DNA of 64,000 nucleotides from assembly GCF_057098645.1 (NCBI RefSeq), contig NZ_CM169472.1. One strand, given 5' to 3'. Numbering within the stretch: the first letter of the stretch is position 1; each line of letters starts with the position of its first letter. Positions 57,001 through 60,000 of this stretch are shown here, piece by piece. A program made the position numbers.

Positions 57001-60000
57001 TATCGAAGTGTTGGCCTTTGATTGCGCCACCGACATCCAACGCCACCATCAGACGCAATTCGTACTGACCGTTAAATTTGCCGTTATTATCCAGCAGCGG
57101 CACTTCTGCCAGCAAGGTTGTACCTGGTGGGATAATGGAACGATCAGAGGCAACTGAAGCGCGACCAACCAGCGGCACCGCACTTGCCCCTTTCACCGGT
57201 GCAAAAGATTGCGGTTTAAAGAAAACGAAAGACGGGTTCTGTTCCAGCAGCTCGCGAACCTCGGCTTCACTGTGTGTTTCGCCCCAGTGACGAATCGCCT
57301 GCATCGACATATCTTCTTTTTTCACTTCGCCACGGTCGATCAGCACCTTACCAATGCTGCGATAGGCATGACCGTTTTTCCCTGCATAGCTGAAAAAGTT
57401 AAGCGGACTGCCATCACCAAAGTCGATATACCCACTACCCTGCACATCCATAATGAAGTTATCCATCAGGGAGTTACTGTAAGCGAGAATATATTTATCA
57501 CTCAATGCCCCCGCGTAGATCTCCGCACGAGACGGCAGGCGACCACGTTTTGGCGGCATACGGTAAATAGGATACTGGAACTCGCCCTGGCGGGTATGGC
57601 GCGCCTGAATTACCGGTGTGTAATAACCGGTAAACTGCACGTTACCATAGTTGTCGGCACCTTCCATCTGCCAGGCATCAATGCCGAACTGACGCATATT
57701 GCGGGTATCACCGCCTGCGCGCAGCCACTCTTGCACCGCGTTATAAACATTACTCTGGTTGCCATACAGACGCGGTGACGAATTACGGATATGGTTAATT
57801 TGCTCGGCAAAATCACCGGCGTTAATCGGCGCGCCAACGGCATCTGGCTGGTTCACCAGAGAGAAAGGCTGGGTAAATTTCCCGTCTTTATATTGCTGTC
57901 CGCGATCGGTTGGTTTGGAAGAGCAGGCGGCAAGCATTGCCACAACCGTGCCCATAAGAAGGTACTTTACCCAACGTCCTTTCATTGTTCTCTTCTTCAG
58001 GTTAAAAAATAAGGCGCAACGAAGATAACAAACCGCCGCGTTTAATGAAATGAGCAGCCTCTCCCTGACGCAAATTTTGCACAAAAAATAGGCTTTAGTG
58101 GTTTGTTTTTGTTCAAAATCATGCTAAATCCGTGATCGGGGTAAAAAAAAGGTTGCATGAAAACGCGAGCGGAGTATAGTGCGCATCCACGGACGCGGGG
58201 TGGAGCAGCCTGGTAGCTCGTCGGGCTCATAACCCGAAGGTCGTCGGTTCAAATCCGGCCCCCGCAACCAATTAAAATTTGATGAAGTAAAGCAGTACGG
58301 TGACGCGGGGTGGAGCAGCCTGGTAGCTCGTCGGGCTCATAACCCGAAGGTCGTCGGTTCAAATCCGGCCCCCGCAACCAATCAAATTTGATGAAATAAA
58401 GCAGTACGGTGACGCGGGGTGGAGCAGCCTGGTAGCTCGTCGGGCTCATAACCCGAAGGTCGTCGGTTCAAATCCGGCCCCCGCAACCAATTATTGAACA
58501 CCCTGACGGGTGTTTTTTTGTTTCTGGTCTCCCATAAAAAAAGCGCCATTCAGCGCCTTTTTATCATCCCCTTCTCGCCAGCGTTGCCCCATCGGCAAAA
58601 TACGCTTTAATCCCCGCAAGAATAGACTCCGCAACTTCCTGCTGGAAAGTCGCCGTTTTCAGTTTACGCTCTTCCTCAACGTTACTGATAAACGCCGTTT
58701 CGACCAGAATGGAGGGAATATCTGGTGCCTTTAGTACGGCAAACCCGGCCTGTTCAACTTGATTTTTATGCAGCTTGTTGATTTTACCGAGCTTATTCAG
58801 CACCGCTTTACCAAACTTAAGGCTGTCGGCAATGGTCAGCGACTGCACCATATCGAACATGGTGTGGTCGACATAGCGGTCACCGCTTTTGCTCACGCCA
58901 CCAATCAAGTCCGAGGCGTTCTGGGTTTGTGCCAGATATTTTGCCGCAGTACTGGTTGCACCTTTGGTTGAGAGCGCAAACACCGAGGAACCGCTCGGCT
59001 GGCGACTGGTAAAGGCGTCGGCATGGATAGAGACAAACAGGTCAGCACGCTGTTTCTGAGCTTTTGCTACGCGCACTTGCAACGGAATGAAGATGTCTTC
59101 ATTGCGCGTCATGTACACCTTCATATTGCCCTCTTTCTCGATCAGAGAGCGCAGACGGCGAGCTATTTGCAATACCACGTCTTTTTCGCGCGTTTTGTAT
59201 TTCCCCACCGCACCGGAGTCTTCGCCACCGTGGCCAGGGTCAAGCATAATGACAATCGGACGATCGCGCCCTGCTTTACCTGGTTGTGGACCACTTTGCG
59301 CTGGTGGCACCTGCTTTTCGAGGTCGCCTTTGTTGTAATCCTCCAGCAGCGCCAGCAGCGGGTCCTGCATATCCTGTGCATTGGCCGGATAGAGGTCCAT
59401 CACCAGACGCTCTTTAAACCCGGCGACCGGCGCAAGGGCAAACAGCTGCGGTTTTACGTTTTGCTTTAATTCAAAAACCATCCGTACGGTTTGCGGGTCA
59501 AATTGCCCGACGCGCGCCGACTTGATGAACGGGTCGTCTGCACGAATTTGTGCCGCCATCCCCTTGAGTACCGAGTTCAGGTTTACATCTTCGATATCCA
59601 CCACCACGCGTTCCGGGTTACTCAACGCGAACTGCTTATATTTCAGCTGACGATTTGATTCTACCGTCACGCGGGTGTAGCTGGACGCAGGCCAGACGCG
59701 CACCGCCACGACCTGGCTGACCGCAGCCAGACTGACCTGACTTACGCTCAATAGCCACATGGCACCCGCGCCTTGCAGTAAACGACGACGGCTGATTGCA
59801 GTGTTGGATCCTGACATGCCTCTCCCGAGCAAAAGAAATCTAAGCTGTGTAACAAGTAAACGACTAATTTGACCGGAAACTTTAGCGAAAGACGCATAAT
59901 CTGTCATCTAATAAACGGTAAACATTCTTTTTATATTCACGACATTACTGATAAAAAAGTCGCTCTCGCATAAAATTTACACTTGCACCCTGCGAAAAAA

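Follow-up and report, generated by a model that had tools for sequence, protein, structure and literature searches.

The closest described systems are two sets of initiator transfer RNA (tRNA) genes and one other tandem tRNA array in Escherichia coli. Most of the initiator tRNA in the cell comes from the metZWV operon, with a minor share from the metY gene (PMC3017606). In strain K-12, metY encodes the A46 isoform, tRNAfMet2 (bioRxiv 10.64898/2026.04.16.719103). The K-12 metZWV promoter has been mapped (PMC3017606, Fig. 2A legend), and two exchanges, T-to-C within the -10 box and G-to-A just upstream of it, strongly reduce both tRNAfMet1 and promoter activity (PMC3017606). The level of initiator tRNA varies with the number of gene copies (PMC3017606), deletion of metZWV impairs growth (PMC11480407), and the amount of initiator tRNA affects growth, cold sensitivity, and start-codon fidelity (PMC3017606; PMC11480407). 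General accounts exist of tRNA gene numbers that vary by plus or minus one copy among E. coli strains and of tandem tRNA arrays that originate by duplication, and the same study found the identical genes of the glycine tRNA array glyVXY three or four times in tandem in every E. coli that it examined (PMC4539685). Here we analyze an initiator tRNA array in a stretch of 64,000 nucleotides (nt) of contig NZ_CM169472.1 (assembly GCF_057098645.1), which is called the window throughout. The locus is the metZWV operon in a genome resembling O145 Shiga toxin-producing E. coli, and as such it is already known and ordinary, a textbook operon. We consider it very probable that it consists of three tRNAfMet1 genes with one promoter and one terminator, and that gain and loss of whole units has led to one to five copies in different E. 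coli strains.

ARAGORN identified three tRNA-Met(CAT) genes on the plus strand, and no other tRNA gene, in the 64-kb window. They are located at 58194-58270, 58304-58380, and 58413-58489, and are identical to metZ, metW, and metV of K-12, respectively. The orthologs in K-12 MG1655 are annotated as 'tRNA-initiator Met(CAU)' and lie between mltA and amiC. The Rfam covariance model for tRNAs (RF00005) scored each copy at 61.4 bits, compared to a gathering score of 29. The three 77-nt gene sequences are identical, and chance cannot produce three identical 77-mers. A repeat search returned a unit of 109-110 nt in three copies, and the similarity extends back into the promoter-proximal leader. Spacer 1 (58271-58303, plus strand, 33 nt, ATTAAAATTTGATGAAGTAAAGCAGTACGGTGA) is AU-rich and unstructured with a minimum free energy of 0 kcal/mol, and spacer 2 (58381-58412, plus strand, 32 nt, ATCAAATTTGATGAAATAAAGCAGTACGGTGA) has a minimum free energy of -0.7 kcal/mol. 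The two differ at three positions, one T/C exchange, one A insertion or deletion, and one G/A exchange. The original prediction, which had been made from the sequence of the window, had proposed exactly this arrangement of three identical 77-nt copies, with 33-nt and 32-nt spacers between them that differ by few bases, and it is borne out by ARAGORN, Rfam, and direct sequence comparison, including the spacer sequences it had quoted. A region of 901 nt is 100% identical to the E. coli O145 strain RM9872. Of the 5,426 complete genomes of E. coli, 5,425 match this region, in all cases directly adjoining mltA.

The promoter region precedes the first gene on the plus strand. An A-tract (58143-58150) that is identical in K-12 and would act as an UP-like element is located just 5' of the -35 hexamer TTGCAT (58153-58158, identical to K-12), as UP elements are a general feature of promoters of stable RNAs. 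The -35 hexamer is separated by 16 nt from the -10 hexamer TATAGT (58175-58180), which lies within the conserved sequence GAGTATAGTGCGC. It is followed by a GC-rich discriminator, GCGC, and a short 5' leader that ends with CACGGA (58181-58193); the sequence GCGC(A/T)TCCACGGA is conserved across genera. Discriminators of this type are generally linked to stringent control, and such leaders to processing by RNase P, and both roles may apply here as well. The promoter core GAGTATAGTGCGC(A/T)TCCACGGA, also written as GAGTATAGTGCGC..CCACGGA, precedes nearly all arrays in Enterobacterales. Downstream of the third gene an intrinsic terminator was found by a terminator scan and RNA folding (58496-58523, plus strand), with the stem GAACACCC-TGAC-GGGTGTTT and a T-run. 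The hairpin at 58496-58515 has a free energy of -11.1 kcal/mol and a z-score of -4.1, it is conserved across Enterobacterales, and the motif AACACCC...GGGTGTTTTTTT is kept in other genera. A scan of the two spacers revealed no promoter-like or terminator-like site. It is thus well supported, as judged from the sequence and its conservation, that one promoter and one terminator probably serve all three genes, in agreement with the single upstream promoter-like element and single terminator that had been predicted. The boundaries proposed there also have a ready explanation: position 58153 is the first base of TTGCAT, and position 58520 falls within the T-run of the terminator.

From these elements the following route to mature initiator tRNA can be proposed. 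One precursor would be transcribed from a single sigma-70 promoter of the stable-RNA type (TTGCAT, 16 nt, TATAGT, GCGC discriminator), and transcription would stop at the sole intrinsic terminator past the third gene. The precursor would then be cleaved by RNase E in the unstructured AU-rich spacers, RNase P would generate the 5' ends, and exonucleases would trim the 3' ends to the encoded CCA, as is general for the processing of tRNAs. After charging with methionine the tRNA would be formylated, with the C1xA72 mismatch as determinant, and it would directly enter the P site of the ribosome, a step for which the three consecutive G:C pairs in its anticodon stem would be required. The number of gene copies is expected to set the cellular level of initiator tRNA. 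As the units of about 110 nt are nearly identical, recombination out of register or slippage could occasionally remove or add whole units, and the same exchange of units could homogenize the spacers over long time scales.

The near-identity of the units is therefore expected to result in strains with different copy numbers, from one to five, and such strains were indeed found. Copies were counted in the 5,426 complete E. coli genomes with array and junction queries, for which a full-length match requires a given copy number, at strict E-value limits. BLAST coverage had been considered as a copy counter and was dropped, because joined pieces reuse the same DNA of a record, and genomes with one or two copies still reached a coverage of 94-100%. 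At least two copies are present in 5,194 genomes (95.7%), at least three in 4,999 (92.1%), and at least four in 67 (1.2%). Exactly three copies were found in 4,932 genomes (90.9%), exactly two in 195 (3.6%), exactly four in 41 (0.8%), and exactly five in 26 (0.5%), while 232 genomes (4.3%) have at most one copy. The latter include 109 single-copy genomes with the amiC flank and 104 with an alternative flank. As a cross-check, the sum of 4999 + 67 + 26 = 5092 compares with a value of 5091 that the junction totals gave independently. A query with the tRNA sequence had a median of four matches per genome, with a range from one to eight; the median of four is the three copies of the array plus metY.

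Arrays with one, two, four, or five copies are thus present in about 9% of the genomes, or about one in eleven. Contracted arrays (427 genomes) are about six times as common as expanded ones (67 genomes). The variants are spread over many flank-identity classes, with at least eight for each of the two single-copy flank types and at least eight for arrays with four or more copies, and therefore the underlying events are recurrent; these classes set a bound on the number of independent events. The variants include reference and laboratory strains; for example, strain HS and XL10-Gold have four copies, and O104:H4 and LF82 have one. The structures of the variants are informative about how they arose. 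In O145:H28 strain RM12761, which has two copies, the sole difference from the window is the exact deletion of a 109-nt unit, and the remaining spacer is a chimera with the 5' part of spacer 1 (s1) and the 3' part of spacer 2 (s2). In the five-copy array the spacer order is s1 s2 s1 s2, which is the pattern that an exchange involving copies 3 and 1 would leave. The prediction that the copy number at this locus is unstable between strains, for which a comparison across E. coli genomes had been suggested, has thereby been confirmed. Several laboratory strains thus do not match the K-12 reference, with four copies in XL10-Gold and one copy each in K-12 C3026, ME8067, MG1655p, OV2, and AS19-RrmA-; if real, these changes arose in the laboratory.

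A wider view is offered by species-representative genomes, which were scanned for tRNA-spacer-tRNA junctions. This resulted in 64 loci, nearly all of them in Enterobacterales. Behind the conserved promoter three copies are present in 41 loci, two copies in 12 loci, and four copies in one locus. Therefore, three copies are the ancient state, and the array itself is ancient, occurring throughout Enterobacterales and usually with three copies. The spacers were compared in 11 enterobacterial genera with one representative each. Spacers 1 and 2 of the same genome have an identity of 0.83, in contrast to 0.63 between genera for spacers at the same position and 0.62 for spacers at different positions. 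In addition, the middle and 3' parts of both spacers shift together by lineage; Escherichia and Citrobacter, for example, have GCAGTACGGTGA, Enterobacter has TCTACGACTGTAGAAAGACGGA, and Kluyvera and Klebsiella have TACTCGATGGAAGAGTAA. The similarity within genomes together with the shared lineage motifs fits a signature of concerted evolution between genera.

It could be argued that the spacers resemble one another owing to purifying selection on processing signals, such as an RNase E site behind each tRNA and the leader recognized by RNase P in front of the next one, and not owing to gene conversion or unequal exchange. Indeed, the 5' end of the spacers (ATTAAAAT or ATCAAAT) and the bases immediately preceding each tRNA (..ACGGA or ..GGTGA) are found repeatedly among the genera, and again in the leader next to the promoter, and the first 8 nt carry a small positional signal, with identities of 0.70 for the same position versus 0.65 for different positions. 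However, beyond these 8 nt the identity between genera is 0.60 irrespective of whether positions are matched, compared to 0.83 within genomes. The joint, lineage-specific change of the middle and 3' parts (GCAGTACGGTGA, TCTACGACTGTAGAAAGACGGA, TACTCGATGGAAGAGTAA) also speaks against selection on such signals, as does one Klebsiella genome in which the two spacers are identical. Selection in place of exchange is thus an unlikely explanation of the spacer similarity, and exchange of whole units is preferred.

Several points weigh against this reading, or against parts of it. First, the difference between ATTA in spacer 1 and ATCA in spacer 2 is common to 15 genomes of Escherichia, Citrobacter, Enterobacter, Leclercia, and Klebsiella. 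A difference common to five genera must be old, and homogenization is therefore slow and incomplete. Second, for the closely related pair E. coli and Citrobacter the positional orthologs are more similar (0.94) than the paralogs within a genome (0.91). Third, copy 1 carries the fixed exchanges G52A/C62U in Citrobacter, Klebsiella, and Kluyvera, and therefore these arrays encode two initiator isoforms in a position-specific manner that is maintained across genera. Fourth, a generic sigma-70 scan did not call a promoter at the array; it missed the metZWV promoter because TTGCAT fits the -35 consensus at just three of six positions, and the assignment rests on identity to the characterized K-12 promoter and on conservation across genera. 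Fifth, the account of transcription, processing, and formylation is taken from K-12 and from what is generally known of tRNAs, and these steps are to be understood as probable by analogy. Last, some of the variant copy numbers may be errors of assembly. The first three points concern the claim of ongoing concerted evolution, which had been based on the similarity of the two spacers. The general idea is right, and the comparison between genera supports it. 'Ongoing' is only partly justified, as the differences between the spacers have persisted across five genera and 91% of the strains keep three copies, and the near-identity of the spacers at this locus is not in itself evidence for recent homogenization.

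The last point can be extended to the view that copy differences between strains are mostly artefacts, caused by collapse or incorrect unrolling of a tandem repeat of 110 bp during assembly. Two observations speak for it. In the RefSeq 'complete' genome of strain ST648 (H60; NZ_CP008697.1, locus L002, position 4292) a single N is present exactly at the array and no tRNA is annotated, and this apparent zero-copy array was rejected as an assembly gap and not a real loss. Moreover, the lists of single-copy genomes are enriched for the project series AVS, STS/STK, GF, and WP, across several flank haplotypes. The glyVXY array provides an internal control, because it has the same geometry and was analyzed in the same assemblies. 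At most one glyVXY copy was found in 0.85% of the genomes and two copies in about 1%, compared to 4.3% and 3.6% for metZWV. A generic collapse would affect both arrays, and the fact that metZWV is four to five times more variable argues that most of its variants are real. In line with this, metZWV is reduced to one copy in AVS0969 and K56-43-un, yet the glyVXY junction count of both is intact. The four copies of E. coli HS were recovered in two independent assemblies, the O104:H4 strains 2011C-3493 and 2009EL-2050 share the single-copy form, the listed names of strains with the five-copy form belong to several series, and the variant structures are in exact register with the unit. An origin of most variants in assembly is therefore quite improbable, and gain and loss of whole units remains our interpretation. 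A query with the whole glyVXY array at 1e-120 (3,713 genomes) was discarded, because it was confounded by spacer divergence, and the junction query was used instead. Between E. coli lineages the glyVXY spacers have diverged further than those of metZWV, and 2,136 genomes matched the 86-nt junction query at 95-99% identity.

The identity of the tRNA was deduced from its sequence. In general, the C1xA72 mismatch is the determinant for the formylase and also bars the tRNA from elongation, and an A11:U24 pair (purine 11, pyrimidine 24) marks initiators. All three copies have a CAU anticodon, the C1xA72 mismatch, A11:U24, and an encoded CCA, and the pair 1:72 is marked as non-canonical in the Rfam alignment. 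The anticodon stem contains the three G:C pairs G29:C41, G30:C40, and G31:C39, which act in P-site selection (PMC3017606). The genes of the array have a G at position 46, and therefore the product is tRNAfMet1. Together with the identity to the K-12 genes, these determinants substantiate the predicted isotype of initiator tRNA-fMet. That the genes encode elongator tRNA-Met or are pseudogenes has practically no likelihood left and was already refuted by the initiator determinants, all of which are present: the plain label 'tRNA-Met' given by ARAGORN, and by the RefSeq annotation of most genomes, stands against the non-canonical 1:72 pair, the identity to metZ, metW, and metV of K-12, which are annotated as initiator genes and have been studied genetically (PMC3017606), and a tRNA sequence without a single change in 5,425 of the 5,426 genomes. 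Formylation of the array tRNAs and their use in initiation in vivo are likely, by analogy to the identical K-12 genes that were the subject of those genetic studies (PMC3017606).

What does the variation mean for the cell? It is conceivable, though rather doubtful, that the metZWV copy number represents a natural setting of initiator tRNA dosage and that selection on the level depends on the lineage and is not uniformly purifying. This idea is based on repeated contraction to one or two copies, seen in about 8% of the complete genomes and in at least 15 flank haplotypes, on expansion to four or five copies in about 1%, and on a variation four to five times that of glyVXY. The level of initiator tRNA affects growth rate and the fidelity of initiation. 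Irrespective of this idea, copy variation has practical consequences when initiation is engineered, such as by use of orthogonal initiator tRNAs, and when translation is compared between strains, and metZWV is a clean small example for the dynamics of an array in register with its unit. None of the papers covered by the literature search gives numbers for natural metZWV copy-number polymorphism. The count at population scale is the sole modestly new element of this analysis, and a small, practical addition.

Two protein-coding genes flank the operon, both on the minus strand. The upstream, divergent neighbor mltA encodes murein transglycosylase A (56888-57985; open reading frame 56888-58084), agrees with the annotation in E. 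coli, and is not part of the operon; in K-12 the annotated start of mltA is located 209 nt before metZ. The downstream, convergent neighbor amiC encodes N-acetylmuramoyl-L-alanine amidase (58564-59817; open reading frame 58564-59907) and is mentioned for context; it agrees with the annotation in E. coli, including K-12, and its end at 59817 was inferred from the K-12 gene length of 1254 nt. The metV gene is a recognized integration hotspot for genomic islands (PMC7545054; PMC3032704). In 1,964 of 5,425 complete genomes (about 36%) the similarity to the window ends within about 10 nt past the third tRNA gene, and these genomes have an island instead of the terminator and amiC (loci L001 3520-6077 and L002 4294-8292). 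The island encodes a phosphoglycerate dehydrogenase, a KpsF/GutQ isomerase, MalY/PatB, and a phosphotransferase system EIIC protein, and has its own terminator hairpin of -16.3 kcal/mol. From 58490 onward the window represents the island-free form. Three other RNA genes of the window were detected with Rfam, CsrB (34964-35323, minus strand, 383 bits), GcvB (53504-53709, plus strand, 199 bits), and ES036 (CssrF; 56724-56766, minus strand, 46.5 bits). The spacing between CsrB and GcvB presumably reflects the gene order of K-12 in this region.

The arrays of other genera exhibited additional features. The G52A/C62U exchange is a compensatory change in the T-stem that is private to the first gene, and it was seen in ten of the loci. 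In six loci from several Enterobacter, Citrobacter, Pseudenterobacter, and Atlantibacter genomes, spacer 1 holds about 70-130 nt of inserted sequence, which contains ...GTGAATCCTTAGGAACTTACATAAGTAAGTGACT.... We assume that it resembles an ERIC/IRU repeat; if so, the repeat would be co-transcribed with the initiator tRNAs. Three arrays of Marinobacter and Ferrimonas comprise five to six initiator tRNA genes, and some of their 'spacers' of about 111-113 nt hold a degenerate tRNA-like fragment that ends with ..CCGGCCCCCGCAACCA; these look like decayed copies inside the array. In the genome named Enterobacter pulveris DSM 19144, two initiator tRNA arrays with two copies each are located on one scaffold at a distance of about 350 kb. 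Their 40-nt spacers are identical and their upstream regions differ, which points to a recent event, either a duplication or gene conversion across this distance.

A comparison with the known systems summarizes how this locus is related to them. The tRNA genes and the whole promoter region are identical base for base to metZWV of K-12, the neighbors mltA and amiC are the same, and the terminator hairpin is shared. The two operons differ in spacer 2, which has 33 nt in K-12 and 32 nt in the window (one A and one G/A exchange), in one base of the terminator loop, and in a few single-nucleotide differences in the flanks. The metY gene encodes the same initiator tRNA, save position 46 in K-12, but it is a single gene at a separate locus outside of the window. 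The glyVXY array of K-12 (locus L070, 861-1159) has the same design: its three genes measure 76 nt each, its spacers 36 and 35 nt, and the unit repeats about every 111 nt. However, its copy number varies far less among these 5,426 genomes, 99.2% of which have at least two copies and about 98% at least three. Last, the array shares two hallmarks with the concerted evolution of bacterial multicopy genes as a general concept (see PMC6053082): paralogous spacers are closer to each other than to their orthologs in other genera, and changes encompass whole units. In contrast to that concept, homogenization at metZWV is slow and mosaic, with the ATTA/ATCA difference and the G52A/C62U exchange persisting.

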